A stretch of 64,000 nucleotides of DNA from Squalus acanthias (lineage: Eukaryota). Shown here piece after piece: positions 1-54,860 of this stretch. Position 1 is the stretch's first letter, and each line of letters opens with the position of its first letter. The DNA is taken from assembly GCA_030390025.1 (NCBI GenBank), contig CM059431.1, forward strand, positions 131,070,001 to 131,134,000, given 5' to 3'. A program made the position numbers and the translations under genes. The notes under the pieces were generated by a model. The model had not been told where the DNA came from. It ran no database searches and was given only the letters and a program-made list of their open reading frames with translations.

Positions 1-1
1 A

Positions 2-3000
2 TGGAAGAGACCACTCGTTAGGATGGAGGTGGAGAAGGTGAAAGGGACTTATCTGTTAGATACTGGAGCTTCCAGCACCATAGTCTATTCAGCCAACCCC
101 GCCGCCTCACCTCTGTCTAACTGGGGTCCCGTACAGCTTAGTGGGGTTTACAGGTAACGAGCAGACTGGCTCATTCTCCATCCCGCTGTCCATTCATTTA
201 GGAACACTCCACACCAAGTGGACCTGTGTCCTGATGAAATGGGAGTGGGAAGGGACGGGGATCCTGGGGGCCGACTTTATCACAGGCCACAGGATTCTAG
301 TGGATCTTAGGAACCACTGTCTGTGGGGAGCATGTACTGGCAGAGAAAGTGAAGTGGCAGTCATCCCAGGGAAACAGGGCAAGGGGACCTTGTGCACCCG
401 AAAACCAAAGGAAGGTTACAACCTCGAAGAAATGGTCGGTAACACTCCGATGGCCTACCAGGCATTTGTGCGAGCACACCTCGCAGCATTTGCCACTCAC
501 AAGCACGACTGTGGGAGGGTAAACGGGGTCGAGGTTAGTGTCAGCGGGGGCCCCATGACCTGACCACAGAAGCAATACAATTTCCCCAGGGAGGCGGAAG
601 CAGACATAGAAAAGGCTATGGCTTCTTTAGTAACACAGGGGGTATTGAGACCGATAGTCACCCACGTAAACTCTCCACTGTGGCCGGTTAGAAAACCGGA
701 CAACTCCTGGAGGGCCACAGTGGACTATCGGGTACTCAACCGCAACATCCCCGCCTGTGCACCCACGGTAGCAGCCGTCGCCGACCTCATCGGAAGTATC
801 CCAGCATCTGCGACCACTTTCACAGTGCTGGACATTTCCAACGGGTTTTGGTCCATCCTTTTACGAAGAGAGGACCAGTACAAGTTCGCCTTCACTTTTA
901 AAGGCCAACAGTACACCTGGAACTGCCTACCTCAGGGCTTCCACAACAGCCCGAGCATTTTTCACCAATGCATGGTGAATTGTTTGAAGGGCTTCAGCCA
1001 GCCCCGGCAGTTGGTACAGTATGTGGATGACCTACTCCTGTTCACCGATGAGGGAGAGGAACACGGTCCACTACTGGCTGAACTGCTGGAGCTGCTCCCG
1101 CAAGAAGGCTTCAAAGTGAACCCAAAGAAGGTACAGATCGGCCAACAGGAAGTAAAATTCCTAGGGCTAACTGTGCGCGCTGGGGAAAGGGCCATCGACA
1201 AAGCTAGGAGGGAAGCAGTGCAGGAGTTACCAGCCCCCAACACAGTCACAGGAGTGAGATCCTTTCTAGGGCTAACCGGGTACTGCAGAGATTTCATTGA
1301 GGATTACGCAGCCACCGCAGCCGCTCTGCTCCGACTCCTACATAAGGGTGTAGAGTGGGCCTGGGACGAGAGTTGCGAGGCAGCATTTCCCAAGTTAAAA
1401 AAAGATCTGCAGACCGCGCCGGCTCCAGGAGCCATTGATGGGGAGAGGGAGTTTTTCCCGGAGGTGGCAGCCAGTGGGGACAGTCTGAGTGCCGTGCTGC
1501 TCCAAGACAGGCATGACCGGCTGAGACCGGTGGTTTACTCCTCCAGGATACTCACCGATGTGGAGAAGGGCTATTCCAACTGTGAGAGGCACCTCCTTGC
1601 CACTCACTGGGCTGTGAAAAGATTATTGATCTTCACAGGCACGTCTCCCATCACCCTCCTCACCCATCACACGCTCACCCAGATGCTCCTAGATGGGAGA
1701 ATCAAAGACGGGACAGTGAGCAGTGCCCGTATTGGTCGCTTGAACCCTGCTTCTCTCCCAGATGGACCTAAGGGTGAAAGGTCTCTGCGAGCCGAAGCTC
1801 GCAGCCAACATGATCTACCCAGGGACTGCCCACTGCTGTTCCATTGAAGGGGTATGGGAAGTCAACATAGGTTTTCGGGCCGGGATACACCCCACAGGCC
1901 GCAAAATCTATGTGGACGGTTCGAGCACAGTATCTGCTGGCGAGCGACTCACCGGGTGTGGAGTTTATGACCAGGAGGCAGTCATTGCCCTGGCAATCAA
2001 ACTCCCCAGCACCATGAGCGCCCAGCAGGCCGAACTGTCTGCGGTAGTGTACGTGGTCACACACCCCGAGAAGTTCCCTACCAGTGAGTGGCGAGGAGGT
2101 GCCTCTCACAGTTGGAATAGCCCTTCTCCTACCTCGGACAGCATGTTCATATGCAATTCGTGTACGGAGTACCTGGCCATCTGGTCCCGTCGCGGATATA
2201 CCTCCGCTGATGGGAGACCCCTCACCATAAAGCCCCTGCTGGAGAAAATTATGGCGGCTGTAGGGGAGGAAGGGAAGGCCTATATCCATAAGGTCATGGC
2301 CCATTCAAACACAGAGCCCAGGTAGGAGAGTAACTGTAAGGAAGACGAGCTGGCCAAACAGGGGGCCAGGGAAGGGATATTCTGGGATCCGTACCAAACA
2401 GGTCCGGTAGCCGCAATCCGGAGCAAGGGAGGCACCCAGGGGGTAGCCTTGGCCCCAGACTTAAAGCAGGCCCATGCCCAGGATACCGTCCTCAAGGCCG
2501 TCCTGAATGCCCTTGAAAAAGGGGAAAAGATAGAGGGCCCGTACGGCACAGTAGCCATCACCGTTAAGGAAGGCATGCTGTTCAGGGGGGAGCAGTGGGT
2601 GGTGCCGCAGCAGCACCGAAGGGAATTCCTCCAACTGGCCCATGAGGGTCCAGGAGCGGGGAATCTCGGACCTGAGACCACCTGGCAACGGGTGGAACAG
2701 ACAGGATGGTGGCCAGGACTCAGGGAAGAGGTCCGCGAGTTTTGTGCCGGCTGTTTGGTGTGTGCTGCTAACAACCCAGACCCCCAGAAAAGAAAGGTAT
2801 CTGTGGGACACATCAGGAGGGTAGAGGGACCATGGCAGTCGATCCAGGTCGATTACTTTGGGCCCCCACCCACCGTCCAGGGAGGCTTTAATTACTGCCT
2901 AGTCCTGGTGGATGTGTTCTCAAAGTGGGTGGAAGCGTTCCCATGCCGTACTGCTACCACATTGGGTACGGCTAGGATCCTGGTCAGGGAAGTGTTCTCA

Positions 3001-4032
3001 CGATGGGGACTACCGCAGTGTGTGGAGTCCGACCAGGGGAGTCATTTTACCGGGCAGGTCATGCAAGAGACCCTCAGGGTACTCGGCATTGAAGGGAAAT
3101 GGCACGTCGCCCACAACCCGCAGTCATCGGGTCCTGTGGAGCGTTTAAACCGTACCATTAAGGAAAGGCTACAGAAGGAAACGGGAGACTCACCCAAGAA
3201 GTGGGTAGAAGTCTTACCGTTGGTCCTAATGGGGATCCGAGCCAGCCAGTCAAAAAGCACAGGGTATTCCCCACACCAGCTCATGACTGGTAGGATTATG
3301 CGGACCCCCACCCATGTGCTAGCCCCGGTGCTCACGGAGGGTCAGCTCAGAGAGGTGAACCGGGACAGCTTCGTCAGGAATCTGTTTGAACACCTTAAAC
3401 AGGTTCACTGGCAGGCTGCTAGCAACATGGGAAAACCGCATCGGAGTAACCGACTGCTGCTAGAACCCCGCAAGCACCACGAGTGGGAGATAGGGGATCA
3501 GGTCATGGTTAGGAATTTTGCCCAGGTAGGGAGTTTCGAACCACTGTACATGGGGCCGTACAGCATTGTCGACAAGGCAAGCCCCATGGTCTACGCCATA
3601 AAGATGCCCCGCCGCACGAAGTGGTTCCACATTAACCAGTGTAAACTGTTTAAACCCAAAGGGGAACAGCCAGCAAGGGCGAACCGCCCTAAAGGTAGAG
3701 ATCCTCAGCCAGCAGCTGCGGCAGACTCACAGACTGCACTGGTAGGGGCAGTGGCTTGTGTCACCGGAGGGGCTACCCCACCAATTCTGTGGGACTCGGA
3801 TGCATCCCCGGTAGCCAGAGTCCTGAGAAGGTCTCCTCGCACACCACAGCCAAAACTACCGTGGTCACCATCGCATCAGTTTCAATGGTTCAGCCCAGCA
3901 AGGGCCGCAACCCGAAAAAGAATACCCAAAGTCAGGGATCGTTCTAAGAAGAGGGATCCCCAGCCTGCGACCTCAGGCTGCGGGGAACCCACAGGACAGG
4001 ACAAGGACTCAGCAGGGGGTAGTGTGCTGTAG
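2..4032 (+). pseudogene. pol: pol of element 1, disrupted by stops and frameshifts
   Basis: Protease YLLDTGAS (frame 2, about 50-73). RT LPQG and YVDD (618..1847). Degenerate RNase H EVAASG. Second RNase H IYVDGSS/AQQAEL (1762..2325). Integrase D,D(35)E and GPY (2449..4032). Stops at 561 and 2323; frameshifts near 140 and 1740. Confidence 0.93.
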
Positions 4033-4388
4033 CACAGGAGGGGACCCTCCCCGGATTATCAGGGATTCAGGGAAACCCTCAGTTGTTTTAAGAAGGACTC
4101 TCCGGGTCCTGCGGTACAGGCCACCTTACGCCCAGGCGTACAGGCTGCTCAGAAGCTGCCCAAGGCAGAGGCCATACAGGAATTAGCCTGGCCGTCTGGA
4201 GACGGGCGGCGGATGTACAGAGTTTTAGGTATTTTAGGGGTGTTTTACAGTTTTGGTAGTTTTAGTTTTAGTGAATTATTTTTACTTAAGTAAGTTTAAA
4301 TTTTTGAGACTCGATCACCTGTCAAGCCAGAGAACCTTCTCGGGACATGGCTATCTGTTTTGTGTGTCCCTACAGAGAGGAAATCAGC

Positions 4389-5455
4389 ATGAGGAGGGTT
4401 CTGCTCCTGCTCGCCCTGGTAGGGGTGAGCATCGGTGGCCGAGGTGACGTGGAGGAATCCCACATTTATGGGTGCTCGGGAGAGAGAGCGCCGATCGTTA
4501 CCGCTAGGGGTGGCAAACCGGGTGTGGAGGAGCTCGCTATTTACTTCCACGAGGGAAGGTGGCCAGGGTGGCTGGGGTCTAACTCTACAAAATACTCCAG
4601 GCAGACCGGGTTCACCTACGGGGAGGCCTCCATCCCGTGCCCCAGGGTACAGGTCGTTGCTACAAGGGTCAGTGTCACTGAGGGGAAACGTGTGTGTCTC
4701 ACATGCAAGGGACGGAGTCCCCTGGATAGGTGGTGGTGGCTCAGGAAGCTGAGCAGGGACATATGGGACCGTACAGCTGACTGGGAATGACTGGGGAACG
4801 ACACCTACCGGACGATCACAGGGTCCCAAGGGGGTGTGAGTGTGTGTTGGGATAAGTGGTGGGAGTCGGAACAGGGAATCTATGTCTGTATGTGGGGATC
4901 AGAGAGAGCCTGCCCCACAGGCATATCCATCATCTTCTCCAGACAATGGCAAGATACCGGGAAGGGGATGGGGTGGGACTCTAGCCTGCATGCGTGCGCG
5001 CTCCCACACTCCCCGATCCCAGTCAACGCCACCGAACTCGTAGCACGCCCCCGAAAGCCCCTGCCCATGACCACGACATCACGGACAGTGATAGAGAGGT
5101 GTCTTACCACCACCAAGGGACCAGAGCATGGGCTAGTGCTAGTGTCGACTGAAAAGGTACTCTATGCAGTAGCTTCAGTTATCCTAAACCTTACCGAAGT
5201 ATACTCTAGAACAAAAGACAGTCGAGATAGGGGCCGAGATTTCGGGCATCATAATTCCACCCTGGTGGGACATTTTCGAAAATATAGAGGTCCCTTTCCT
5301 GGATCAGAATGGCTTCCCACATTTTAGTGGTCTGCCAGCTTGGCATAGTTTTCTACTTACTGTGCACAAAATGCAAGGGAAAGGACAGAGTGCTCCGATC
5401 CCGACATGAGAAAGCATGGGACCAGCATTACAATAAAGCCTATGGCCAGGTTTAG
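4389..5455 (+). pseudogene. env: env of element 1, internally deleted
   Basis: Signal peptide MRRVLLLLALVG; aligns to element 2 Env up to NLTEV. Premature TGA at 4788-4790. After about 5200 another frame reads TLEQKTVEIG...PWWDIF...SWIRMASHILVVCQ, matching the TM end of element 2 Env. Confidence 0.88.
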
Positions 5456-5735
5456 GACGAGCCTTAATTGTTTTATTAAAATGAATAAAGTTTTTGTGAC
5501 CGTGTATTATTTTTCTACGTATGTACTATATTTTCCAAGTGGTGCAGGGGTGTTGGACCCCCTCCGTGCTTGGATATGAATGTAACTGAATTCTTACCTG
5601 TGTCTGCATCTGAACACTACACCTAAAGGGGAATGTGAGTTTTGGGTCTTAGATAGGTAAACTACAGGGGAAGGTCGGCTCTCAGGGATCACGGTTTTTG
5701 CTCACCCAGTATGAAACTCTAGCGAGTAAAGTATC

Positions 5736-5746
5736 AGAGGGGGGAC
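5736..5746 (+). promoter_or_regulatory. Polypurine tract of element 1
   Basis: AGAGGGGGGAC directly before TGTAA; element 2 has AGGAGGGAC|TGTAA. Confidence 0.85.
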
Positions 5747-7245
5747 TGTAAGATTCTCAAAATTCACAGATCCCCCAAAACTCAAAGACGAACCCTAAGG
5801 AAAAAGACTTTGGACTCTTTTATAACTAATACAGGGTGGTGAAGTGCATGGGGCCTAAGCGAAGGACATTTTGAGCAAAAACCAAGATTTGGTATTTTAA
5901 AAGACATGTCTGGGCTTGTAAGGGAGAAAAGGCTGTGAAGGAAGGTGGGCTCAACCTCTGTAAAAACAGTTTGGGTATTGGAGTTAATGGAAACTGTCTG
6001 GGAACCGTATGACCTCGCTGGGAGTTAAATCGGTCCCTATCAGACATTAACATTCTTACAATAAACCCGAGGAAAAGCAGTCTCCACCCCAATTTACAGA
6101 ACCCATTAAAAACATGCATAAAACAGATCACTTCGGCCTACTCTATAGAAATCCTAGACCCAGTCAAGAAACCCAAAACTTGAGGACAATCAACTACGAT
6201 TAAGTGGTAAATCGACAGGATGGAGCCATCCCGAAACCACTTCACACCTTAACAAACAAGTTACCGTTAACGAGCCAGCTAAAATCTAACAATGACCGAG
6301 ATCTGATTTGGCGCGCAGATAAGGAAGCTTCAAGTAGTATAATTGAAGGCCCGTTCTCAACCTGAAAAAGAAGAGGAAGGAAGAACAACAAGACATCCAC
6401 GGAGGCATTCTCCGCAACACAGTTTCTCCAGCACCACCGTTCAGCGTTCCGTGTCCAGCCAGGAGGTCGACAGCTCGAAGGCCAGACTATCCAACAAAGT
6501 AGGCCGACACGTGGAAGAAACCAGAACGACAGCCTCACTGACCATCGGACACCTCGCGGCAACAAGGTCCTCACGAAACCAACTAACCGAACACCAAGTA
6601 TCAATATTGGGCCACCGCGACCAAAGAAAACCAACTCGAAGAAAAACCGAAGATCCGCAAAGTTTCCACTCTACAATCTACTCCTGACTTACCGCTGGGT
6701 AAGATTTTCCCTAAAAAACTCTAAACCCTACTTCTAAACCAAAGAAAACTGGGTACTCACCTGATAGATCCAATACGCACCCTACCGCATCAGCGGACTC
6801 GCGAAGACTGACCAGATACGCAGTTGAAGTCCTCTATCGCGTACGGGGTACGGCAGACACCAACCAACATATAGAGCGAACCCCAAAACCGCGAACTAGC
6901 CCAACTGTCAAGGATTCTGGTGAGTATCATCCCTGGTCCTCTGGAGTCCAACCTAGCTAGTGAAGTGGGATTGGGAGGGGTGAAGTATTCTTCTAATGTT
7001 ATTTCCCTCGCTTGTACCGAAGTGTTCCGCACTTTTAGAGTGTAAAGAGTGTTTGTGTTGTGTTTTACTTTCTTGAATAAAGATCAAAGTTCTTGCATCA
7101 AAACCAGTTGTCTGCTGCACTTTTTGTCACAACCCCCAAATAAGTCCAAGGTCTAGAACCAAGGGAGTGGGAGCGATTCAAACCGCTCAGAAATCAGAGG
7201 CGAAGCTGACACAAACCACTGCTCAGTACACAAAACTCCTTCACA
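5747..7245 (+). repeat. 3' LTR of element 1 (about 1.5 kb)
   Basis: Starts TGTAA after the PPT. AATAAA at 7076-7081. Ends CAAAACTCCTTCACA, like the element 2 LTR end CAAAACCCCTCACA. Partner LTR is not in the window. Confidence 0.8.
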
Positions 7246-7659: not shown

Positions 7660-7991
7660 TTAGTATATAACCTTTTTAGAAAAGCATACTATATAGCCTT
7701 TTTTAGAAAAATACACTATCTTATGAAAGAATTCTGGCCTTGTTGAGATATGACAGTGGTTGACCCTGAAGAGTACCTTATAAGGAACTCTACCTTATAA
7801 ATTCTTTAAAACATGACAAACAGGGTTTGGAAATTTAGAAACCTAACTATGAAATAGCTATGAAAGAATTCTGGCTATTAAAACAGGACAAGTTGTTGAC
7901 CCTGAATAAATAACCTTATTGAAACAGAAGAATGGGATGGCTCCGAGTGGCTGACCTTTTGGGAACAACATAATGGTCAACCCCTAGCTAT

Positions 7992-29679: not shown

Positions 29680-29878
29680 CGATAGCAAAATACTGCAGAT
29701 GCTGGAAATCCGAAATAACAACAGAAAACGCTGGAAAAACTCAGCAGGCCAGGCAGCATCCGTAGAGAGAGAAAGAGAGTTGATGTTTCAGGTCGATGAC
29801 CTTTCTGGTCATCGACCTGAAACGTCAACTCTCTTTCTCTCTCTACGGATGCTGCCTGGCCTGCTGAGTTTTTCCAGC
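29680..29878. mobile_element. Short Penelope-tail insertion forming a 72-bp inverted repeat
   Basis: Arms 29730-29801 and 29807-29878; flanking duplication CAGCCTTCTTCTGTA; sequence matches the tail at 54765-54840. Confidence 0.85.
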
Positions 29879-40599: not shown

Positions 40600-41278
40600 G
40601 TGGGTTAGCCTTTTGTCTGTGGCATTTCCTTTTCACCATGGATGTCCAATCCCTCTACACCTCCATCTCCCATCTGGATGGACTGCTTCTTACTTGAACT
40701 GAGGTCCAACCAGTCCCCATCCACCACCAATTTCCTGCACCTGGCTGAATTTGTTCTTACAGTACACAACTTATCCTTTGACACCACTCACTTCCTCCAA
40801 ATAAAAGGTGTTGCTATGGGAACCCATATGGGACCTAGCTATGCCTGCATTTTCGTGGGATACATGGAATGTTCTTTGCTTCAGCCCTACACAGGACCCC
40901 TCCCTCACTTATTTTTCCAATACATTGATGACTGTATTGGTGCCTCTTCTTGCTCTCACCCTGAACTGGAAAATTTCATCAACTTTGCTTCCAATTTCCA
41001 GCCCTCCCTCACCTTCACATGGTCCATCTCCAACTCTTCCCTTCCATTCCTCGACTTCACCATCTTCATTTCTGAAGATAGGCTGTCGACCAATATCTAC
41101 TATAAGTCCACTGAGCCTCATAGTTACCTTGACTACACTTCCTTTCAACCTGCTTCCTGTAAGGACTCTATTCCATTCTCCCAGTTTCTCTGTCTCCATT
41201 GCATCTGTCCTGACAATGCCACCTTCCACACCAGTGCTTCCGATAAATCTTCTTTTTCCTGAACGGAGGATTCCCCTC
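40600..41278 (+). mobile_element. Penelope-like element, RT half (interrupted by element 2)
   Basis: QIKGVAMGTHMGPSYA, QYIDD and LPFLD (40642..41262). Confidence 0.88.
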
Positions 41279-42965
41279 TGTAAGGGGTTTTGGCGTGCTT
41301 GTATCACAGACGGTGCTGGTGCGAGGTTAGGCCTTCGTTGCCTAATGCTATTGCTTGCTCTGGTCTCCGGCCAGCCTTGTTGCAATAAGCACCTGTGAGT
41401 GGTTCAACCCACTCGCCCTTACGGTTCTAACACTGGACTTAGGTGCGAGAGCAGTAATGCAGAGAAAAACTCAAATAGACCCGGTTGAATAGTACGAAAT
41501 GGAAATCTTTATTGCATAGCGTCCAAAATCATGAAGTACATGTCATAGGCACAAATTAACGAGAGTACAAGTATACATACATTCATAAAGCTTGGTCTAT
41601 GGTAATGAAGAACGCACGGCACATCGTAAAAAGGGGAACACATTATACTTTATCCTTAATAAAACCACCCTCCCTTATCAATACCTACACTACATCTAGA
41701 TTTGTAGGATCGGGAAACATGCTCACCACTCGTGATACTTCGGAGAATTTTAAAGTGAGGCACTCGGCTCCTTCGCTGCAGCGCCTGACTGTCACGTGTT
41801 TGGAGGGGTCTCTGTACCCCACTTTTTTGTCTTCGCTGCTGCGGCAAGCAGGCCGGGATCCCCGTTGTCATGAAGAACTCGACAGGACTCGGGCCCGGCT
41901 GTAGAACTCAAAGAAAAGTCTTCCTGTACCGACACCAGTTGTCGGTAGAATTCAAAGAAGAGTCTTTGACCGGTTCGTGCAATAACCTGTAGAATTCAAG
42001 AAGTGGGTCCTATATTTTCGGGCGCAGTCGGGGTTTACTGACCGCGGCGGCACGTGGATTCTTCTTCTTTTCTTGTCATTTCGTATTGTCTTGTTGGGCC
42101 TTCGGGTCCAGACACCGTTTACCGACTCTCGGGATGGTGCACCCGGTCACTTGCCTTTGTCGAGGCGGCTCGTTCCGATTGAGCTCCACCCAACATTCGA
42201 ATAACCGTCCAGTGCGGCTAAAAGTCCAGAGTCAACAGAGTCCAGCCCTAGAGAAGAGCTTCGGCAGTCAGCAGCAAGCTAAGAGAATAGGAGACGATTC
42301 AAGCGAATAAGAGCCGAAAATCAAGAGAGCGATGGACATTTGTTCACTATAGTTATAGTGCTGTGTTCCCTTATCTCCCGCCCAAATCTTACTGTTTGTC
42401 CTTTGTGAAATATTGGCGCTCAAAACTCCCAGCATGGGGCGATTCTTTTCTTAACGGGTTTCGGTAGCACCTGAAACTGGCCAACTACCCGTTAATGTTT
42501 TCCCCATTGTTGAACTGGCTAGGAGCCTCCCTGGCTGGGTTTTGGGGGCCCCCGAATGCTCGCTTAATCACCCGTCGATGTCTCTCTCATTGTAGAGCCG
42601 TGGGGGTATTTGTGTATTGATGTGTCTGGATGGGCCTTCGATTGCCCAGTACAATGGTCCTTACTTGTGCATGGAAAACGATTCCAGCACTTATATCTTT
42701 GCTATTGTCACAAATGCAAACAGGTTGCATCCTGTCTTTATCAGTGTTTATCGAGTATGATCGCGCCTTATATTGAAATGTTTATTCGAACGCCATCTTG
42801 TCTGCCCACTGTAATTCTGGAAGCTTCTGCCACGATGCGCGGCGGCCATTTTACAGGCTTCTGTGTCCTTTTTAATCATGACAGCATTTAGTTTTAAATA
42901 AACTGATCAAACGAATCTGCTTCTATCTTGTTATTTTTGAATCGCGATAATTGCGAAACTTTACA
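41279..42965 (-). repeat. 3' LTR of element 2
   Basis: Colinear with 52109-53795 at constant offset 10830; about 22 substitutions by manual count; AATAAA on - at 41508-41513. Confidence 0.96.
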
Positions 42966-42974
42966 GTCCCTCCT
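42966..42974 (-). promoter_or_regulatory. Polypurine tract of element 2
   Basis: AGGAGGGAC directly 5' of the LTR TGTAA on -. Confidence 0.85.
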
Positions 42975-43359
42975 GTTGATGCGAATAACTCCGCTTATCG
43001 TATCAATTAAAAGTGGTGGTGAGCAAAATTATCCCGATTCTCCACATCCAAACACTCCCTTAACTTAAACTATCTATGGCCTCCATGCCGTCCTCATTTC
43101 CCAGGGAAATGATATTGTCTAAACTTGGACAAACCATAGGCAGTATTGCCTTTAAACTTACACTGCGTATACGCCTTCCAGGTGCAACAGGCCGATGCCT
43201 CTCGCACCACCTGTATATGCATTTTATTATACATGGAAAAATAATCAAAACAACTCTTTTAAAAATACAAAAGTTCCAAACTTAGTTACACATACTCATA
43301 ACTAAACAATCAATTACAAAAACACACATGGTAAAATGGAGCGGCGTCATCCTGGCCGT

Positions 43360-45711
43360 TTACACACCACTTTCTTCGTTCACGCGCATGTAGCATTCTC
43401 TCCACTCCCCTGTGTTCTCCTGCTTTGTGAGGCGTTTGCCTCTTTTGCAGTGCACGACCAATAGGTACACTACAATTATAACTTGGCACACTACCAAAAT
43501 GTGGGAGGCTATCCTGATCCATGAAGGAACTTCAATATTCGTGAACAGATCCCACCACAGTGGGATTACTATGTCTAAAATTTCTGTCCCTATCTGTACT
43601 GTTTTCTGTTCCAGGGTGTAAAAGTGGTTTTGTGATACCGCGACGGCTTTCAAAAGCTTGGTGAGGTGTTCAGGGAGAGGGGGAATGATGTATCCGAAAT
43701 GCGCGACGAATCGCTGCAAGTCTGTGAAATTCTCTTTTACTGTGAGGTGAACAGTGGATGGTTCAGGGATCGGGACAATTCGCTGTTGTGCCACTTGAAC
43801 TTCAGCCCTGGGTTTAAAACAGAAACTGCTGTCACTCACCGGACACCGGCTGTGGTTTCCATGCTGGTAGTGTTGCGCTGCAGTGGTAACGCAATATGTT
43901 CCACCCCCTATGTATGCCACCTGCGGAGGCACATGATCTTGTGTCATTGCCTCCATGGTGCAATTCATGGGCTTGGCGCCAGCTGTTCTGAACCCGCATT
44001 GTGGTGTTAAAAAGGCATTCAAGTGCTGGGGACACAGGATTATGTGTGCTCCCCGGCCACGACAACCCGATAGGCCGGTACCTGTCATCGTTTGCTCCCA
44101 GCGGATGACGTAAGGTGGGACCGCTGCGTAGCGAATGTGGGCTCCCCCCTGAATGACACCAATGTTCTCCACCCGATACACCGGGGCGGGCTTTGCTGTG
44201 TCGCCCAAGACCGGCATACGTAGTACTATACCCATGATGGTATGGTTTGACCGTCCGCAGTCCACGGGGACTGGGTATGCCTCTGAGGCTAGCCTGAGCT
44301 GGCACGGGCTTAATGCGTTCTGAAAAGGGTGGAGCGCCTGCAGGTGTTTGTTACTTATCCAGGACAGGACCAAACCTTGTTTTAAATCCTCCAAGTTACT
44401 GCGGCCCTCGCCCAGTAACCACGCCCCGTATAGTACGCACACCTCGTTCTGCGCAGCTTGATCGGATGCATTCCGATCTTCCCTGATCAGGGCATTTACC
44501 GTTCTCGCATGCTTCTCCAGCTCTGCTATAATTTCTTTTAAGTGTAGCGTCATGGCCTGGTCCTCATGTAACTCAGACCCTACTACCTTGTTTTCGCTTG
44601 TGAGGATGCTTTTTAGTTGTGTTTTTAAACCATTGATCTGGGTCTGCAGCTCCACGTTTTCTAGAGCGTTGACCACAGATGTTCCTGTATTAAAGGCGGT
44701 GAACATATTGTTCACAATACCCCTTCTTTGTCTCCCCACCTGACCCAAAACTTTGTGTGGTGTGGTGTACAAGCTTGTTTTGTCAATCTCTGCAAAATCA
44801 AACTCGTAGAATTGTCTGAACATGTTTGTCAACAGGACCTGGTACAATTGTTCTGTCTCTTTGGGGCACCACTCTGGTAAACGCACCTCGGTGAGATTTA
44901 GAATCACCGAAGCCACCGCGTAATGTACCCCCTGAAATAGTATCTGGTCTGTTGGGACCAGTACCAAACCATTCCTTGGCCCCTTAGTGGTTTTAGGGCA
45001 CCCTTCCTTTTGAGCCAAAACCACCGGAATCGTGGGCGGAGACTTGCGTGGGCGCGTGATGAGTTCAGTGGCGTTTACCGGGATCGGGGAGAATGGAGCT
45101 CCGCACCCCTTTGTGCTGACATCCCATCTCATCCCTTTCCCGTTATCCTGCCACTGGTGTACGAAAAATATGGATATACCCTTGGGGCAAACGTATTTCG
45201 ATCCCCACATACAAACATATATTCCCTCATCCGGTTCCCACCATTTGTCCCAACAGACTTTCAATTGTCCGTTAGTCCCTGTAATTGTCCGATGGGTATT
45301 GTTACCCAATCGCTCCCACTCAACCAAGGAATTTCTCATAGTCTTGCTTAACTTCCGTAACCACCACCATCGGCTCAATGGGACCTTCCCATTGCATGTC
45401 AAACAAATCCTTTTGCCGACGGTGACGCTGATTCTGGGTGCAATGATCCTCACTCTGGGGCACAGTAAAGAAGTCTCTTTGTAGGCAAATCCCGATGCAC
45501 TGGAGTATTCCATCGAATTTGTTCCCAGCCATCCCGGCCACCTTCCCTTGTGGAAATAAGTGGCGGTCTCCTCAGCCTTTCGCTCCCCGGTCCCATCCGT
45601 CGCGATGGGGGCCGTGTCCCCGGAGCAACCAAACACAACGACATCCTTGATGAGGCCCTGATAGGCCAATCCATATCCGATCGTTGCGAGCACTATCAGA
45701 ATCCGTTCCAT
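43360..45711 (-). CDS. env: Envelope glycoprotein, 783 aa, open: signal peptide, Ig-like domain, Pro-rich linker, class I F-like fusion module, TM
   Basis: Hydrophobic N-terminus; RQRR|GIVNNMFTAF (aa 327-340); heptad repeat; Cys-rich block; TM aa about 732-753; N-glycosylation sequons; position between pol and PPT. Confidence 0.92.
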   Translation of the reverse strand: MERILIVLATIGYGLAYQGLIKDVVVFGCSGDTAPIATDGTGERKAEETATYFHKGRWPGWLGTNSMEYSSASGFAYKETSLLCPRVRIIAPRISVTVGKRICLTCNGKVPLSRWWWLRKLSKTMRNSLVEWERLGNNTHRTITGTNGQLKVCWDKWWEPDEGIYVCMWGSKYVCPKGISIFFVHQWQDNGKGMRWDVSTKGCGAPFSPIPVNATELITRPRKSPPTIPVVLAQKEGCPKTTKGPRNGLVLVPTDQILFQGVHYAVASVILNLTEVRLPEWCPKETEQLYQVLLTNMFRQFYEFDFAEIDKTSLYTTPHKVLGQVGRQRRGIVNNMFTAFNTGTSVVNALENVELQTQINGLKTQLKSILTSENKVVGSELHEDQAMTLHLKEIIAELEKHARTVNALIREDRNASDQAAQNEVCVLYGAWLLGEGRSNLEDLKQGLVLSWISNKHLQALHPFQNALSPCQLRLASEAYPVPVDCGRSNHTIMGIVLRMPVLGDTAKPAPVYRVENIGVIQGGAHIRYAAVPPYVIRWEQTMTGTGLSGCRGRGAHIILCPQHLNAFLTPQCGFRTAGAKPMNCTMEAMTQDHVPPQVAYIGGGTYCVTTAAQHYQHGNHSRCPVSDSSFCFKPRAEVQVAQQRIVPIPEPSTVHLTVKENFTDLQRFVAHFGYIIPPLPEHLTKLLKAVAVSQNHFYTLEQKTVQIGTEILDIVIPLWWDLFTNIEVPSWIRIASHILVVCQVIIVVYLLVVHCKRGKRLTKQENTGEWRECYMRVNEESGV

Positions 45712-45988
45712 CTTTCCTGGTTCCTGTGATCAGATAAAATGATGTAGCCAGCCTCCCAAGAGTCTCTGGCTTTTGTGAAGGGTGAGCGGGTCCCTTGACC
45801 TCGTCTCACGTAAAAAGACATGTATTCTGGATAGACTTTAACTATTCCTATCTCTAACTCCCATCATTTTACCACTTACTTTTAAAATTAAACTACAAAC
45901 TTACCAAAATTATAAAACTTAAACTTAAACTTATAAACTTATCCTAAACTTAAACTGTACAGCGCTGCCCGTTCCCAGGGCGGCCTAC

Positions 45989-48900
45989 CTAAATTCTGCG
46001 AAGGCTGCCACGAGCTTTTCCCAGTGGTGGGAGGGCACTGACCCCTTCCTTTGATCTGCCGCAGCCTGTCGCCGCTGCGCTAGGATTGGGATCTCCCTGG
46101 GCTGCCTTGACCTTGAACTTACGCCTGGGGGTGCACGGGGGATTTGGCCACGACTTCCTGGGCTGGGGTGTCCGACTTGACCTACGGAGGGCTACTTTGG
46201 GCAAGATTTCCAGGGCCGACAGACCAGGAACCAAGACTTCCACCGTCGCGGCCTGTGGTCCCACCACAGCCGCTGGCTCCGTCTCCCCTGGCTCCGCCCC
46301 CCTGAACTCAGGATTTGCAGTTTCTGGCTCCACCCTACTTGGCCCAGTATGTTGTCCTCCACTCGCAATCCCTACCTCCCCCAAGGGCAAGACTTCCAGG
46401 GCCGACGGACCGGGTACCGAGACTTCCACCGTCACGGCCTGTGGTCCTACCACAGCCGCTGGCTCCGTCTCCCCTAGCTCCGCCCCCCTGGGCTCGGGAT
46501 CTGCAGTTTCCGATTCCACCCTGTGTGGAACTCCACTCGCAGCCCCTATCTCCCCTAAGCTTGAGTCGAGGGTGAAACCTTCGTCCTCCGACCCCAGCAC
46601 CTCTCCGACCGGGTCACTACCTTGATCGAGCTCCCCGAGCTCTTCCTCATCTGAATCCCAACACCAAGAAAAGATCCTACACTTTTCCAGAATGTCCTCT
46701 CCCCTCAAGCAGGCTGCTTTACCGGTCTGTGCGCCCTGCGGTCCTACCCGGGGCTGCGAGTCCCCACTCGCAGTTTTGGCCCCTGTGATTGGCCCCTGTG
46801 CAACCGGCTTATACAACTTGCACTGGTTAATGTGGAACCATTTCGTGCGCCGGGGTACCTTTACGGCGTACACCATGGGACTCGCCTTATCTACAATACT
46901 GTAGGGCCCCATATACAGTGGTTCCAAACTCCCTACTCTGGCATAGTTCCTAACCATGACCTGATCTCCGACTTCCCACTCCTGCTTCTTGCGGGGTTCC
47001 AGCAACAGGCGATTGCCCTGGTGCTGTCTTCCCATGTTCCCAGCCGCCTGCTCGTAAACCTGCTTCAGGCGCTCCAAGAGGGTCTGGACAAACTTGTCCC
47101 TTTTCACCTCTTGGAGCTGGACCTCAGTGAGCACCGGGGCTAGTACATGGGTGGGGGTTCGCATGATCCTCCCAGTCATCACCTCGTACGGGGAGTACCC
47201 TGTACTTTTCGACTGACTGGCCCGGATCCCCATGAGGACTAGAGGCAGAACCTCCGCCCATTTTTGGGGCGAGTTCATAGTCTCTTTCCTCAGCTTCTCC
47301 TTGAGGGTCCGGTTCATGCGTTCAACAATCCCGGATGACTGGGGATTGTGCGCTACGTGCCACTTCCCTTCAATGCCCAAAAGCATGAGGGTGTTCTGCA
47401 TCACCTGGCCGGTGAAATGACTCCCTTGGTCTGACTCCACGAAACGGGGGAGTCCCCACCGCGAGAACACTTCCCGGACCAAGATCTTGGCAGTACCCAG
47501 CGCCGTAGCTGTTCTACAGGGGAAGGCTTCTACCCATTTGGAAAACACATCCACCAAGACGAGGCAGTATTTGTAGCCTCCCTGGGTGGTGGGCAGGGGC
47601 CCTATGTAATCGATCTGTATCGACTGCCATGGTCCCTCCACCCTCCTGATGTGCCCCATGTGCACTTTCCTTTTCTGGAGGTCTGGGTTGTTTGCAGCGC
47701 ACACAAGACAGTTTGCACAGAACTCGCGGACCTGCTCCCTGAGTCCCGGCCACCATCCCGCCTGCTCTACCCGTTGCCAGGTAACCTCCGGCCCGGGGTG
47801 TCCTGCCCCCGGCCCCTCATGAGCCAACTGGAGGAATTCCCTCCTGTGCTGCTGCGGCACAACCCACTGTTCCTCGCGGAACAGCATGCCTTCTTTAACG
47901 GAGAGGGTTGCCGTACTGTACGGGCCCTCTACCTGCTTGCCCTCAGTAATCATTCTGAGAACTGCTTTTAGGGCGGGATCCTGGTTCTGGACGGTCTTAA
48001 GATCTAGGGGCAGTGCTACCCTGGTGTTCCCAGGATTCCCTTCCCTGCCTTGGATCGCTGCCACGGATCCGGGTCCATAGGGGTCCCAGAAAATGCCGTT
48101 ACGGGCACCCTCCCTGGCTAGCGCATCCGCCTGCTGGTTGCCCTCCCCGCGGGGCTCTGTGGAGGAGTGAGCCTTCACCTTATGGATGAAAATCTCCCCT
48201 TCCTCCCCTACTGCTGCTAGGATCTTTTCCAGCAAGGGCTTCATCGTTAAAGGTCGCCCGTCCGCGGAGGTGTATCCACGGCGGGACCAAATGGCCAGGT
48301 ATTCCGTACACGAATTGCACGTAAACATACTGTCCGAACAAATCGTGTATGGGGTTGGGAAAATCTCTAGGTGGGTCACTACGTACGCCACCGCAGACAG
48401 CTCAGCCTGCTGCGCGCTCATGGTGCTGGGGAGTTTAATTGCCAGGGCAAGGTTTGCCGCAGGATCATAAACTCCACACCCTGTGAGTCGTTCGCCAGCG
48501 GACACTGTGCTGGAACCATCAACATAAATCTCGCGACCTGTGGGATGTATCCCGGCCCGCAAACCTATGTTGACCTCCCACACCCCTTCCACCGAACACC
48601 GGTGATCTTTTCACAGCCCAATGCGTGGCTAAAAGATGCCTTTCGCAATTGGAGAAACTCCTCTCCACATCCGTTAACACCCTGGACGAATAGACAACCG
48701 GCCTCAGCTTGCCGTGACGCTCTTGGAGCAGCACGGCGCTCAAGCTGTCTCCGCTGGCAGCTACCTCCAGGAAAAACTCCTTCCCCCCATCTACGGCCCC
48801 CAAAGCTGGCACAGTCTGCAAATCCCTTTTTAACTTCTCGAATGCTGCCTGACAACCCTCGTCCCAAGACCACTCCACTCCCTTCTGGAGGAGTCGGAGC

Positions 48901-50273
48901 AGCGGAGCTGCTGTGGCCGCATAGTCCTCGATGAAGTCTCTACAGTAACCGGTCAGTCCCAGAAAGGCCCTCACACCCGTTATGGTGTTGGGAATCGGTA
49001 ACTCCTGCACCGACTCCCTCCTAGCCTTATCTATGGCTCTTTCCCCAGCGCGAATGGTCAGACCCAGGAATTTTACTTCCTGCTGACCGATACGTGCTTT
49101 CTTAGGGTTCACTTTAAAACCCTTTCTCGCTAGCAGCTCCAATAACTCGGCTAGCAGTGGTCCATGCTCCTCCCTTGAGTCCGTGAACAGGAGCAAATCA
49201 TCCACGTACTGCACTATCTGATTGGGCTGACTAAACTCCTTTAAACTTCCTGCCATACACTGATGGAAAATATTGGGGCTGTTGTGGAAACCCTGTGGCA
49301 AACAGTTCCATGTGTACTGTTGTCCTTTAAAAGTAAAGGCGAACTTGTACTGGTCCTCTCGCCGCAGCGGGATGGACCAAAAACCGTTCGAGATATCCAG
49401 CACCGTGAACGTGGTCGCGGACGCTGGGATACTCCCTATTAGGTCAGCAACTGCTGCTACTGTGGGCGCGCAGGCGGGGATGTTACTGCTAAGGACTCTG
49501 TAGTCCACCGTGGCCCTCCACGAATTATCCGGCTTCCTCACCGGCCATAATGGGGAGTTCACGTGTGTGGCTATCGGCCTCAACACGCCCTGCTGCACCA
49601 AGGAGGACATTGCTGTCTCCATATCAGGTTCTGCTTCTTTGGGGAAGTTATACTGCTTTTGGGGCCGGGTCATGGGGTCCCCGTCTACGCTGACCTCAAA
49701 CCCGGTAACCCTCCCACAATCGTGCTTGTGGGTTGCAAACGTGTGCATATTATCTGACACGTACGCTTGCATGTCCGTTGGGACATCCGCGACCATAAGC
49801 CCGAGGTCGTAACCTCCGGATGGCTTCATGGTACACAGGGCCCCTTTACCTTCCTTCCCCGGGATTACAACTACCTTGCCTTTTCCACCCTTGGCTCCCC
49901 AGAGACAGTGATTCCTAAGGTCCACGAGGATCCCGTGTTCCGATAGGAGATCCGATCCGAGGATACCTCTGCCACCCCCCTCTTGCCATTTCATCAGTAT
50001 GCACTTCCATGTGGTGTGGAGTGCTCCTAAATGAATGGAGAGCGGAATGGAGAACGCGCCAGCCTGCTCTTTTCCCGTGAACCCCGCTAATGTGAATGGG
50101 ACCTTGGTAGACAGTGGTGAGTCAAAGGGGCTATCTGTGTGAATCACGGTGCATGAAGCTCTCGTGTCCAACAAATAACTACCCTTCTGCTTCTCTACCT
50201 CCATCTCCACCAGGGGTCTTTTCCACGCATCATAGCTGAGCGGACACAGGCAAATGGGCTGCGCGGGCTCTAG
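45989..50273 (-). pseudogene. pol: pol of element 2 (PR-RT-tether-RNase H-IN with long C-terminal extension), broken by one deletion frameshift
   Basis: ORFs 48519..50210 and 45989..48592. Protease triad mutated to DTR. YVDD. RNase H DGSS/AEL/SDS/NQQAD. HHCC and DDE integrase. About 200 nt missing at about 48605 relative to element 1. Confidence 0.94.
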
Positions 50274-52032
50274 TCATTGGGTACTGGTGGACGGGGTTGT
50301 GGCATCTGTGAGGCCGGTAGTGACTGCCAGCCTTCCTTGCAAAATCATAAGGGACCGCATAGCTCCCAACATTGATTCTATCGCATCGGGATGGATAGGC
50401 ACACCAGGCCCTCTCTCAGAGACAGGCGCTTGGGTTCGGGCTGCGGGATTTTTATCCCTGGGGTCCTTCCAGGGGTTCCTACAGTTCTTACGCCAGTGAC
50501 CTGTCTTCCCGCACCCGTAACAAGCACCACTGGCTTGTGGGGCGCGGTTTCCCTCCTGATGCCACTCCTTTTGAGCCGGGGCTGCGGGCTGTGCCTCATG
50601 CACCTTTCCCTTAAGGGGATGCGCTCCCGTGCTCCTAATGTTACGATACCCTATGGTGAGTCGATTTAGGACAGACTCCTCTGTTGTGGCGGGGTTAGTG
50701 GGATCAAACCATGCTTTGGCCTGCTCCCTGACGGCTGGCAAACTGTTGGCTACTAAACACCTGAGCAAATGAGTTAAACCAGCACCGTCCAGGTGGTGGC
50801 GCGCGCTGGCGCACCTGGGCAGCTACTCTGGTGTACTGGCCACAGCCTATCGGCGAAAACCTTCGGGGGTTCTCCCTCCATCTGTATGGTTTGACTCAAT
50901 CTGACGAACGGACCTTCGTCATCCGCCCCTAACACTTCTAGGACCTCGTCCCTTAACTCCTCATAGGTTTTATTTCCCCTCTTGCTCTCGTCTGAGAGAC
51001 ACTGGAGGATCGAGCTATCCAACGAGAACAGCAACATTTTGGTCTTTTCCTCATCGTCGCAGCCATTAATTGCTGTGGTCTGTTCTACCTCCCTAAAGTG
51101 TACGGAAGGGTCGTCTGACTCGGACAGCTTCCGTACATGGCTAATCATTGCTCTCAGCTGGTGTGAGCTGTGGGGCAATACAAGCTGGTTCAGGACATCC
51201 CCCTCGGCCCCATTGTCTGTATTCGGGCCTCTCTTGTGACCTCGGAGCGGACACATCGGTCCCGACTTCGACTCTACCTCCGGGGACTGTCCTACCTCGG
51301 GAACCTCCTTTTCTATTTCCACCACTTCCTCCCTTACCCAGGTTGCCGAATAGCTGGGTGGCGCGGAGGGCACAGTGGCAAATACCTCCTCTGCTTTGTC
51401 TGGTAGGGATTTTGGGAATTCCCTACCCACCTGTGGCTGGTGTGCTGACGGGCTGATGAGGCACACCATGCCGTTTGCCTTATTCAGGACCTCTCTTAGG
51501 TTCCCTAACTCCTTCTGGCAAACACTGTGGTCGGCTCCCTCATGCCTATCCTCGAGGGCCATCTTATATGCCGCCCTAACTCCCTTCAAGCCTTCTTCTT
51601 GGGCTTTTATCTGGTTAGCTAGGCGGGCACACCGTTCTCTAATCCTACCCTCGTTTAATTTTGCTTCCGTGACCTGACACTCTAGGTAATCAATTTTAGC
51701 CTCATGGTGGTTGGCTACTATCTGGCGTTCCTGATGTAACGCATTCAAGGATGCAATGAGTTTCTGTCCTCCCGTGATCTTTTCCTCCATCTCAACTTCC
51801 AAATCCCTGATCTGAGCTGCCTGTGCTACAATGACCTGGTCCGAAAGTTGGACTTGCTTCTTTCTTGTAGCACATCAGCCAGACCGCTTTCTCTACCGAC
51901 TTCTTATGCTCTTTACTGCCTGTCCATTTGATGGCGGCGTCCTAGCGGACGCTTATCCATCAGTAGGTCACTTATCCACCTTTTGGTTAAGTTAACCTTC
52001 CCAAACACATAGTCGGCTACCCTCTCATCCAT
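50274..52032 (-). pseudogene. gag: gag of element 2, frameshifted
   Basis: Probable ATG at 52032 (MDERVADYVFGK). N-terminal coiled coil. MHR-like IQMEGEPPKVFADRL. One CCHC knuckle CYGCGKTGHWRKNC (50481-50522). Apparent frameshifts near 51945, 51860 and 50800. Confidence 0.88.
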
Positions 52033-52085
52033 CACATTTCGCCTATTCACACCAGGGTCTAAAACATTACTCTCTCGCTGTCAAT

Positions 52086-52103
52086 GTCCTGCCGCGGTCG
52101 CCA
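52086..52103 (-). promoter_or_regulatory. Primer binding site, tRNA-Arg(UCG) type
   Basis: TGGCGACCGCGGCAGGAC on -, complementary to ...GUCCUGCCGCGGUCGCCA, the 3' end of vertebrate tRNA-Arg(UCG) as recalled. Confidence 0.85.
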
Positions 52104-52108
52104 TTTTC

Positions 52109-53795
52109 TGTGAGGGGTTTTGGTGTGCTTGTATCACAGACGGTGCTGGTGCGAGGTTAGGCCTTCGTTGCCTAATGCTATTGCTTGCTCTGGTCTCCGG
52201 CCAGCCTTGTTGCAATAAGCACCTGTGAGTGGTTCGACCTACTCGCCCTTACGGTTCTAACACTGGACTTAGGTGCGAGAGCAGTAATGCAGAGAAAAAC
52301 TCAAATAGACCCGGTTGAATAGTACGAAATGGAAATCTTTATTGCATAGCGTCCAAAATCATGAAGTACATGTCATAGGCACAAATTAACGAGAGTACAA
52401 GTATACATACATTCATAAAGCTTGGTCTATGGTAATGAAGAACGCACGGCACATCGTAAAAAGGGGAACACATTATACTTTATCCTTAATAAAACCACCC
52501 TCCCTTATCAATACCTACACTACATCTAGATTTGTAGGATCGGGAAACATGCTCACCACTCGTGATACTTCGGAGAATTTTAAAGTGAGGCACTCGGCTC
52601 GTTCGCTGCAGCGCCTGACTGTCACGTGTTTGGAGGGGTCTCTGTACCCCACTTTTTTGTCTTCGCTGCTGCGGCAAGCAGGCCGGGATCCCCGTTGTCA
52701 TGAAGAACTCGACAGGACTTGGGCCCGGCTGTAGAACTCAAAGAAAAGTCTTCCTGTACCGACACCATTTGTCGGTAGAATTCAAAGAAGAGTCTTTGAC
52801 CGGTTCGTGCAATAACCTGTAGAATTCAAGAAGTGGGTCCTATATTTTCAGGCGCGGTCGGGGTTTACTGACCGCGGCGGCACGTGGATTCTTCTTCTTT
52901 TCTTGTCATTTCGTCTTGTCTTGTTGGGCCTTCGGGTCCAGACACCGTTTACCGACTCTCGGGATGGTGCACCCGGTCACTTGCCTTTGTCGAGGCGGCT
53001 CGTTCCGATTGAGCTCCACCCAACATTCGAATAACCGTCCAGTGCGGCTAAAAGTCCAGAGTCAACAGAGTCCAGCCCTAGAGAAGAGCTTCAGCAGTCA
53101 GCAGCAAGCTAAGAGAATAGGAGACGATTCAAGCGAATAAGAGCCGAAAATCAAGAGAGCGATGGACATTTGTTCACTATAGTTATAGTGCTGTGTTCCC
53201 TTATCTCCCGCCCAAATCTTACTGTTTGTCCTTTGTGAAATATTGGCGCTCAAAACTCCCAGCATGGGGTGATTCTTTCCTTAACGGGTTTCGGTAGCAC
53301 CTGAAACTGGCCAACTACCCGTTAATGTTTTCCCCATTGTTGAACCGGCTAGGAGCCTCCCTGGCTGGGTTTTGGGGGCCCCCGAATGCTTGCTTAATCA
53401 TCCGTCGATATCTCTCTCATTGTAGAGCCATGGGGGTATTTGTGTATTGATGTGTCTGGATGGGCCTTCGATTGCCCAGTACAATGGTCCTTACTTGTGC
53501 ATGGAAAATGATTCCAGCACTTATATCTTTGCTATTGTCACAAATGCAAACAGGTTGCATCCTGTCTTTATCAGTGTTTATCGAGTATGATCCCGTCTTA
53601 TATTGAAATGTTTATTCGAACGCCATCTTGTCTGCCCACTGTAATTCTGGAAGCTTCTGCCACGATGCGCGGCGGCCATTTTACAGGCTTCTGTGTCCTT
53701 TTTAATCATGACAGCATTTCGTTTTAAATAAACTGATCAAACGAATCTGCTTCTATCTTGTTATTTTTGAATCGCGATAATTGCGAAACTTTACA
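52109..53795 (-). repeat. 5' LTR of element 2
   Basis: Direct repeat of 41279-42965; followed on - by GAAAA and the PBS. Confidence 0.96.
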
Positions 53796-53799
53796 CCTC

Positions 53800-54860
53800 C
53801 ACCATGGCTGACAGGGCCCTTGACCTTGTCCGTCCGATTTCCTGGACTTCTGCCCTCACCCCTTCCCCTCTCTCCCGGAAACACGATACGGTTTCCCTTA
53901 TCCTCACCTTCCACCCAACCAACCTCCACATTCAATGGATCATCCTCCGTCATCTCCGCCACCACCAAACACATCTTCCCCTCCCCTCCCCTTTCAGCAT
54001 TCCGAAGGGACCATTCCCTCCACGACACCCTGGTCCACTCTTCAATAACTACAGCACCTGCTCCCTTTCCCACAGCATCTTTCCATGCAAGCGCAGGAGA
54101 TGCAACACCTGCACTTTCACCGCCTCCCTTCCTATCATCCAGCACCCCAAACACTCCATCCAGGTGAAACAGCGATTTACTTATACTTCTTTCAATTTAG
54201 TATACTGTATTCGCTGCTCACGATGCAGTATCCTCTACACTGGGGAGACCAAACGCAGATTGGGTGATCACTTTGCTGAACACCTCCGTTCAGTCCGTGA
54301 GTGTGACCCCGAGCTTCCGGTCGCTTGCTACTTTAATTCTCCATCCCACTCCCACCCTGACCTATTTGTCCTCAGCCTCCTACACTGTTCCAATGAAGCT
54401 CAATGGAAGCTTGAGGAACAGCACCTCATTTTTCGATTAGATACTTTACAACCTTCCAGACTCAACACTGAGTTCAACAATTTCAGATCATATCCACTGC
54501 TCCCATTTTTTTGGACAGCAGGTGCTGGTAATGGTTCTGCTGCTATCATTTCTAGCTCCTCCAGACTCATCTTTTATTTCTTTACTTGTCCCATTACCAC
54601 CCCCTTTTGCCTTGCACCATCATTCCTTTTGTAATTTAATCACTCCTGCCTTCCATCCAATCAAAGGCCTTCCCTTTTATTATTTCCTCCCCTACCCCCT
54701 CTTTCCTGACCTCTGTGCCTGCTTAACAACTATTACGTCTGTAACTTTTTCCAGTTCTGATGAAAGGTCATCGACCTGAAACGTTAACTCTGTTTCTCTC
54801 TCCACAGATGCTGCCTGACCTGCTGAGTGTTTCCAGCATTCTCTGCTTTTATTTCTAATT
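53800..54860 (+). mobile_element. Penelope-like element, GIY-YIG half and tail
   Basis: CKRRRCNTC and NLVYCIRCSRC.ILYTGETKRRLGDHFAEHL (53804..54634); hammerhead tail. Confidence 0.9.
54753..54789 (+). ncRNA. Minimal type I hammerhead ribozyme
   Basis: AGTT-CTGATGA-A-AGGTC(ATC)GACCT-GAAA-CG-TT-AACT. Confidence 0.82.

Follow-up and report, generated by a model that had tools for sequence, protein, structure and literature searches.

In describing lokiretroviruses, Wang and Han left open four scenarios for the origin of the retroviral envelope protein (Env), the lokiretroviral Env resembling, in their account, no Env of canonical retroviruses (PMC7947760). The Env of foamy viruses is already known to resemble the fusion protein F (Fernandez et al., 2024, PMC11468914; PDB 8rm0, 8rm1), and lineage I of CmiERV, from the elephant shark, was grouped with the snakehead retrovirus (SnRV) by Han 2015 (PMC4422223). 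Here we analyse a 64,000-nucleotide stretch of contig CM059431.1 from Squalus acanthias (the window, to which all positions refer) and in it a provirus that a first-pass annotation had described as young, complete and lokiretrovirus-like. It is a real but defective provirus of a large elasmobranch endogenous retrovirus (ERV) family. We consider it quite probable that this high-copy family belongs, most likely as class III, to the SnRV-related side of the canonical retroviruses, and that its env encodes a predicted paramyxovirus-F-type protein with a probable immunoglobulin (Ig)-fold attachment domain.

Placement by the polymerase

The reverse transcriptase (RT) of the element is 51% identical to RTs of Xenopus, Latimeria and Aquarana ERVs, 43% to SnRV, 34-35% to foamy viruses, 33% to two lokiretrovirus RTs and 30% to the Gypsy reference. 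It carries the motif LPQG, of retroviral type, whereas lokiretrovirus RTs show R-[C/L/M]-PFG in 21 of 24 rows of the published Dataset S3, read by eye (PMC7947760). The RT had at first been called Gypsy-like; the motif, and 30% identity to Gypsy as against 43-51% to class III-type ERVs, speak against that description. Within the polyprotein the RT begins at residue 207 of Pol, as compared with residue 638 in lokiretroviruses.

Three RT trees, with Odin left out, were calculated from subsets of about 135 RTs: a quick tree of 66 rows, an LG+G4 tree of 46 rows (20 long or redundant ones dropped) and a mixture-model tree of 34 rows. The reference lokiretroviruses were L013 and L014 only, both fish-type, recovered from a public collection by the lokiretroviral RT motif and agreeing by eye with the published fish rows; both are near-complete elements in metagenome-collection records, probably of fish DNA. 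P0020 and L092 were identified as SnRV by their match to the published SnRV RT (Dataset S3, PMC7947760), and thirteen foamy-type genomes were taken in as references. All three trees place the element inside the canonical retroviruses and lokiretroviruses outside them (SH support 87 in the quick tree, 100/97 under LG+G4 and 98/96 under the mixture model). The approximately unbiased (AU) test rejects a grouping of the element with lokiretroviruses alone (p = 0.008), as well as one that joins to them SnRV and the wider clade formed by the element with its relatives from amphibians and coelacanth (p = 0.003). Because of these tests and trees, the view that the element is, by its RT, the character that defines the group, not a lokiretrovirus is well supported, and the RT nests among known retroviruses instead; on the same grounds SnRV-like is the nearest label rather than a firm grouping.

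The lokiretroviral RT motif has no exact match in this genome. A genome search with lokiretroviral RT gave 16,872 candidates, of which the best of the 146 scored reach 41% and the ten best inspected are all LPQG-type relatives of the element, which is weak evidence of absence. The earlier statement that sharks and rays were not among the reported hosts agrees with the text to Fig. S1 of Wang and Han (PMC7947760), where none of the six chondrichthyan genomes screened (0 of 6) has lokiretroviruses.

Several other memberships were considered and rejected. The foamy RT clade (100/100) leaves the element out in both the LG+G4 and the mixture-model tree. For the gamma/epsilon group (class I), the RT falls outside class I, and neither an immunosuppressive domain nor a CX6CC motif occurs in this env. 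For Ty3/Gypsy, the reference RTs form a separate clade (100/99 and 100/100), and the element has a dual rather than a single RNase H. Odin elements have dual RNase H, no env and a position as lokiretrovirus sister; an env is present here. Several diverged lineages of the element's own clade (L093-L118, RT 48-73% identical) coexist in the genome, most of them with an F-type env.

A predicted F-type envelope and the readings of its origin

Pfam searches gave no significant match for Env, PF00523 included. A profile built from 33 natural homologues was compared with the open reading frames (ORFs) of seven reference loci, and its only matches there are the Envs of lokiretroviruses (E 5e-22 and 3e-19), foamy viruses (2e-6 to 6e-5) and SnRV (4e-5). 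Pairwise profile comparison in hhalign gave 98.4% for lokiretroviral Env, 90.7% for SnRV (E 1e-6) and 41% for foamy Env, at a sequence identity to lokiretroviral Env of 18%; the alignment of the F-like profile with the Env of SnRV (L092:6131-9532) extends over 274 columns. In a search of PDB profiles the two best matches were foamy Env, 8rm1 with E 0.004. The AlphaFold model of Env reaches a predicted local distance difference test (pLDDT) score of 70-95 over most of residues 240-650, and VIA-align superposes it on the F proteins of Newcastle disease virus (Z 11.2, root-mean-square deviation (rmsd) 17.6 Å, 373 residues aligned), parainfluenza virus 5 (Z 9.6, 8.6 Å, 288) and respiratory syncytial virus (Z 8.9, 5.5 Å, 277), and on foamy Env (Z 8.4, 5.4 Å, 277). 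The top 16 rows of structural matches are exclusively F proteins or foamy Env, and ESM features place the protein with Baculo_F and Fusion_gly at 0.91-0.92. Env is thus predicted to fold like the paramyxovirus fusion proteins. The resemblance to lokiretroviruses seen at first stands for Env, where the profile scores it best, fails for the RT and is less clear for the integrase (IN), which sits in a weakly resolved basal grade with theirs. Since foamy and SnRV Envs align too, an F-like Env is not a lokiretrovirus marker and cannot be used for calling one. A false extension of the lokiretroviral host range is also removed.

Ahead of this core, residues 81-187 show weak matches to antibody V domains and CRTAM, their ESM neighbours are Ig clusters at 0.89-0.91, and the top 50 matches to a model of the domain are Ig-like beta-sandwiches (Z 6.7-7.5, rmsd about 2 Å). 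Each of these lines is weak but they agree, and an Ig-fold domain N-terminal to the fusion core is probable. The distant Env homologues P0157 and P0132 also seem to have Ig-like N-terminal domains, P0132 (Chiloscyllium) being named 'Ig-like domain-containing' in UniRef. A literature search, with most subscription journals outside its reach, found no paper on this family, on an F-like SnRV Env or on an Ig domain in such an Env.

The same F-type env lies downstream of pol in 14 of 16 sampled loci of this genome whose RTs are 48-97% identical to the element (one is ambiguous and one has none), and a gamma-type immunosuppressive motif occurs in none of the 16; the F-type env is therefore the old state of this radiation.

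A number of results weigh against the placement and the fold proposed here. A sister relationship of lokiretroviruses with the wider clade, SnRV excluded, withstands the AU test (p = 0.15, log-likelihood 20.8 lower); the grouping of the element with SnRV has 99/94 under LG+G4 and is absent under the mixture model and in the quick tree, the fit being equally good whether or not SnRV is in the clade (AU p = 0.54). The IN is 37-39% identical to lokiretroviral IN compared with 31% to SnRV, and 38-43% to the amphibian/coelacanth group; in the IN tree (40 rows, CGIN1 left out) the element lies in a weakly resolved basal grade with lokiretroviruses, while the RNase H tree is without support at its deep nodes. 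The trees carry only two lokiretrovirus references, both fish-type, and no Odin. Env is nearer in sequence to lokiretroviral Env than to that of SnRV or foamy viruses, its model has a mean pLDDT of 62 and rmsd to F proteins of 5-18 Å, and the Ig-domain model has a pLDDT of 52 and a best Z of 7.5. Finally, the readthrough, cleavage, binding and fusion steps outlined below are all inferred, those of readthrough, cleavage and fusion from established retrovirology.

The discordance between the affinities of the RT and those of Env and IN could also arise by recombination, with env, and perhaps IN, captured from a lokiretrovirus by a class III pol backbone. Env swaps are described in class III for XtERV-S, and CmiERV-I, as read by eye, combines this RT type with a gamma-type Env. 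However, the Env is only 18% identical to that of lokiretroviruses, homologous Envs are found in frogs and SnRV, and the diverged loci of this genome carry the same F-type env in its expected place in 14 of 16 cases and no gamma-type motif. A capture, if there was one, would lie far back and cannot here be told apart from shared ancestry, and we consider a recombinant origin unlikely, though worth keeping in mind. Somewhat more doubtful still is a separate early branch made up of the element with its relatives from amphibians and coelacanth, sister to lokiretroviruses or between them and other retroviruses, which kept a lokiretrovirus-like Env and IN. The unrejected AU topology, the IN grade and the nearness of Env agree with such a branch, as does the position of the clade among the basal canonical branches in the LG+G4 and mixture-model trees; but the same best trees split the clade from lokiretroviruses by a supported branch (100/97; 98/96), the LPQG motif is held in common with canonical retroviruses, and the likeness of IN may stem from slow evolution and not from kinship. 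That the element is a genuine lokiretrovirus, and the first one from cartilaginous fishes, we hold to be very improbable: the best profile score of Env among known groups, the 37-39% identity of IN and the dual RNase H point that way, but dual RNase H is common to all retroviruses, F-like Envs occur also in foamy virus and SnRV, and the RT, at 33% identity, lies outside the lokiretroviral clade in all three trees and by the AU test, starts far earlier in Pol and lacks their motif. A Gypsy (Metaviridae) retrotransposon with an errantivirus-like env, which the 4-bp duplication, the GPY/SH3-type IN end and the ESM match to Baculo_F/Gypsy env clusters might suggest, can be practically discounted given the separate Gypsy clade, the 30% RT identity and a tether followed by a retroviral RNase H.

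Having weighed these, we return to an SnRV-side, class III family with an F-type Env. That one profile links the Envs of the shark family, lokiretroviruses, SnRV and foamy viruses favours a shared F-type ancestor, and the predicted paramyxovirus-like fold suggests that F-type Env has an earlier origin and a wider distribution among retroviruses than has been supposed. We tentatively propose, as an idea that is plausible without yet being probable, that a large, early-branching canonical lineage (in sharks, rays, frogs and coelacanth) kept its F-type Env by descent together with lokiretroviruses, foamy viruses and SnRV, that F-type is the ancestral retroviral Env and the gamma- and beta-types later replacements or derivatives, and that the Ig domain is a captured attachment module. 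F proteins depend on a separate attachment protein; if the proposal is true, the captured module would let an F protein work alone. The probable Ig domain offers a possible answer to how a fusogen of this kind could attach with no partner protein. The many well-preserved copies make the question of Env origin testable.

Structure, age and surroundings of the provirus

Self-comparison of the window yields a single near-identical pair of direct repeats, the long terminal repeats (LTRs) of Table 1. They begin and end with TG...CA and differ by 22 substitutions and no indels, as first estimated; 17 of the 22 are transitions, 11 of these at CpG. On the minus strand the order is 5' LTR, primer site, gag, in-frame TGA, protease, RT, tether, second RNase H, IN, env, polypurine tract and 3' LTR, so that the layout reported earlier is confirmed, together with the 4-bp target site duplication (TSD) and both RNase H domains. 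An exact 4-bp duplication also flanks 12 of 16 other family copies with both LTR ends located. Gag is of the coiled-coil type that had been noted, with a heptad-rich N-terminal region (hydrophobic at 19 of 36 a/d positions in the best register) and one CCHC knuckle at 50481-50522. The Pol tail after IN is acidic and proline-rich, its repeat of about 187 bp being in tandem.

Table 1. Features of the window and the evidence for them.
Feature	Position	Strand	Basis
Second copy, related subfamily, older and more decayed: pol, truncated env, 3' LTR 5747-7218	1..7218	+	
Host target repeat, left half (Penelope-like RT remnant)	40600..41278	+	RVT_1, weak, E 0.049
TSD CCTC, left copy	41275..41278	.	sequence
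3' LTR, 1,687 bp, TG...CA	41279..42965	-	self-comparison
Polypurine tract	42966..42976	-	purine-rich run abutting LTR
env, open, 783 codons: signal peptide, N-terminal extension, F-like fusion core, transmembrane anchor, tail	43360..45711	-	
Predicted Env transmembrane helix, residues 732-753	43453..43518	-	sequence
Predicted paramyxo/pneumovirus-F-like fusion core, residues ~238-720	43552..45000	-	VIA Z scores; hhalign to lokiretroviral Env 98.4%
Furin-type cleavage site RQRR, then hydrophobic putative fusion peptide	44722..44733	-	aligned with lokiretrovirus and SnRV sites
Probable Ig-fold domain, Env surface part, residues 81-187	45151..45471	-	model pLDDT 52, moderate confidence
Pol tail, long, low-complexity; internal repeat ~187 bp at 46199-46559	45989..46807	-	sequence
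Integrase: zinc-binding, catalytic core, GPY/SH3-type end	46808..47866	-	PF17921, PF00665
Second (retrovirus-type) RNase H	48104..48535	-	PF00075, E 3e-21
Tether (degenerate RNase H), shortened by ~190-bp deletion and frameshift	48606..48857	-	PF17919; match to P0004 interrupted between its residues 540 and 604
Reverse transcriptase; YVDD at 49197-49208	48858..49655	-	PF00078, E 5e-35
Protease, its catalytic motif changed in this copy; shares the frame of gag, after TGA stop 50274-50276	49932..50273	-	
gag, at least 4 frame pieces: coiled-coil region, capsid-like region, one CCHC	50274..52104	-	
Primer-binding site, complementary to host tRNA-Arg(TCG), 5 bp after LTR	52086..52103	-	
5' LTR, 1,687 bp	52109..53795	-	self-comparison
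TSD CCTC, right copy	53796..53799	.	sequence
Same host repeat, right half (GIY-YIG remnant)	53796..54450	+	GIY-YIG, weak, E 0.018

The epithet 'complete' holds for this layout and not for the coding capacity. In this copy at least three frameshifts break up gag, the catalytic motif of the protease is altered and about 190 bp are gone at the tether end, with a frameshift, leaving env (783 codons) as the only gene still open; this copy is no longer able to make Gag or Pol by itself. Elsewhere in the family, four copies give an uninterrupted single-frame match to a reference Pol, and env is uninterrupted in 7 of 11, so many open env frames being a hint of Env use. An ATG in good context at 52102-52104 (minus strand) shares bases with the start of the primer-binding site, and it opens a frame of 585-607 codons in six of the 17 copies with the site located. 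The Gag start codon may accordingly lie inside the primer site, though the spacer creates an ATG there automatically.

In the ancestor, RNA would have been made from the 5' LTR, Gag translated first and Gag-Pol produced by readthrough of the in-frame TGA. Host tRNA-Arg(TCG) and the polypurine tract would have served as primers of reverse transcription, with participation of the second RNase H, and the integrase would have made the 4-bp duplication on integration, here into a Penelope-like repeat. Cutting of Env at RQRR would yield an outer part with the Ig-like domain, which likely binds cells, and an F1-like part for membrane fusion by a class I mechanism. The family probably spread in several waves, during which a pol-less derivative arose that was likely mobilised in trans.

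Exact pattern counts for this subfamily give at least 2,736 LTR-primer junctions and 1,357 LTR starts in the 3.71-Gb genome, and an env search gave 4,761 candidates, the 40 scored ones being 96-100% identical; the family is a sizeable part of this genome's repeat history. Among 30 copies, 10 (L015, L017, L033, L058, L076 and five more) have lost almost all of pol and kept gag and env, and they share 250-470 bp of junction sequence not found in this provirus, so that they are likely to form a non-autonomous subfamily. The host has tRNA-Arg(TCG) genes to which the primer site is complementary. A second variant of the site occurs in four of the 16 dated copies, and presumably matches another tRNA-Arg(TCG) isodecoder. 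The tRNA-Arg(TCG) pattern has 431 exact matches genome-wide, and tandem arrays of units of about 1,623 bp carrying this tRNA lie at G000:C26:38.99-42.2 Mb (L089-L091), with tRNA-Ser(GCT) adjoining in L089.

The LTRs of this copy differ by a Kimura two-parameter (K2P) distance of 0.0132, which corresponds to 3 million years (Myr) at the mammalian rate of Wang and Han, 30 Myr at the shark rate assumed by Han and about 9 million generations at the rate measured for the epaulette shark (PMC10587355). These figures halve once CpG sites are dropped, and the copy is roughly 1.5-30 Myr old depending on the rate, 'young' being apt only in a relative sense. LTR pairs of the env-nearest copies have K2P distances of 0.35-2.1% with a median of 1.1% (16 pairs, two of them with an insertion in one LTR; 14 of 30 copies were without a full pair). 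In a younger subfamily with another LTR type ten of 11 pairs differ at 2-13 sites, one pair being at 80%. The search for identical LTR pairs that had been suggested found none among the 27 tested, that is, the 16 env-nearest and the 11 of the younger subfamily. DNA 90-99% identical to the element spans its whole length in sequencing runs under three organism labels, and no RNA dataset containing it was listed. As to polymorphic insertion, two DNA runs contain a joint that skips the element; since this joint is imprecise and high-copy repeat makes up both its flanks, it carries no information.

From weak Pfam matches on either side, the provirus is taken to be inserted within a Penelope-like repeat. 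The related, diverged subfamily that had been noticed nearby is indeed there: the second copy ends about 34 kb from the main provirus, its RT is identical at 232 of 264 residues, and its LTRs are 96.3% identical and flanked by a 4-bp duplication, CTGC. Between the two lie a Penelope-like element (7974-9026) and many CR1-like fragments of long interspersed nuclear elements (LINEs; 10000-38900), and no host gene was seen between them in the window. A near-perfect palindrome of 168 bp (93%) at 29721-29888 is probably a foldback inside a repeat. Homologues of Env with names (10 of 47 matches) come from Rhinoraja (76%), Pristiophorus, Mustelus and Chiloscyllium, then from frogs, and the neighbouring LINE RT is 63-70% identical to those of Chiloscyllium, Hypanus and Mobula and at most 54% to those of birds and turtles among the 120 matches listed. 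Both make an elasmobranch host likely, in agreement with the cartilaginous fish proposed at first.

Comparison with known systems

Lokiretroviruses (PMC7947760, PMC9040795) share with the element the gene order, a tether with RNase H, a similar IN and an F-like Env with a furin site, which is its best sequence match. In contrast, the element's RT falls outside their clade and has other motifs, its region before RT is much shorter, its Env has an N-terminal extension of about 230 residues with the Ig-like domain, and its Gag has one CCHC where none was seen by eye in that of L014. Its host class is moreover one in which lokiretroviruses were not found in the published screen (PMC7947760).

Foamy Env shows that a canonical retrovirus can have a fusion core of F-like type (Z 8.4; E 0.004). 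This Env has, however, a large receptor-binding domain inserted between the segments of the core, whereas the element has a small Ig-like domain N-terminal to it, and the RTs are only 34-35% identical. With the paramyxo- and pneumovirus F proteins (3maw, 2b9b, 8wsq) the element's Env has in common the predicted fold of residues 242-735, a furin site followed by a fusion peptide and a Cys-rich head, but the identity is 8-16% and the element carries its candidate attachment domain in the same chain.

Closer in RT (43%) is SnRV, which likewise has a coiled-coil Gag with one CCHC, an in-frame stop between gag and pol and an Env that aligns over the F-like core; the primer site of SnRV is for tRNA-Arg. 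SnRV differs in its IN, which is only 31% identical and lies elsewhere in the IN tree, in a much longer Env (an ORF of 1,134 codons) and in extra ORFs, and the RT grouping of the two depends on the model.

CmiERV-I and clade Huo (PMC4422223; Xu et al., 2018, PMC6001957), as they are described there, are also ERVs of cartilaginous fishes near SnRV, with a coiled-coil-rich Gag and LTR divergence of a few percent, and the short RT motifs given for CmiERV-I match those of the element in a comparison by eye (PMC4422223, supplement). CmiERV-I differs, however, in its shorter LTRs, in its primer site and in a gamma-type Env in which an immunosuppressive motif and CX6CC were read by eye, whereas the family described here combines an F-type Env with LTRs of 1.7 kb and thousands of copies.

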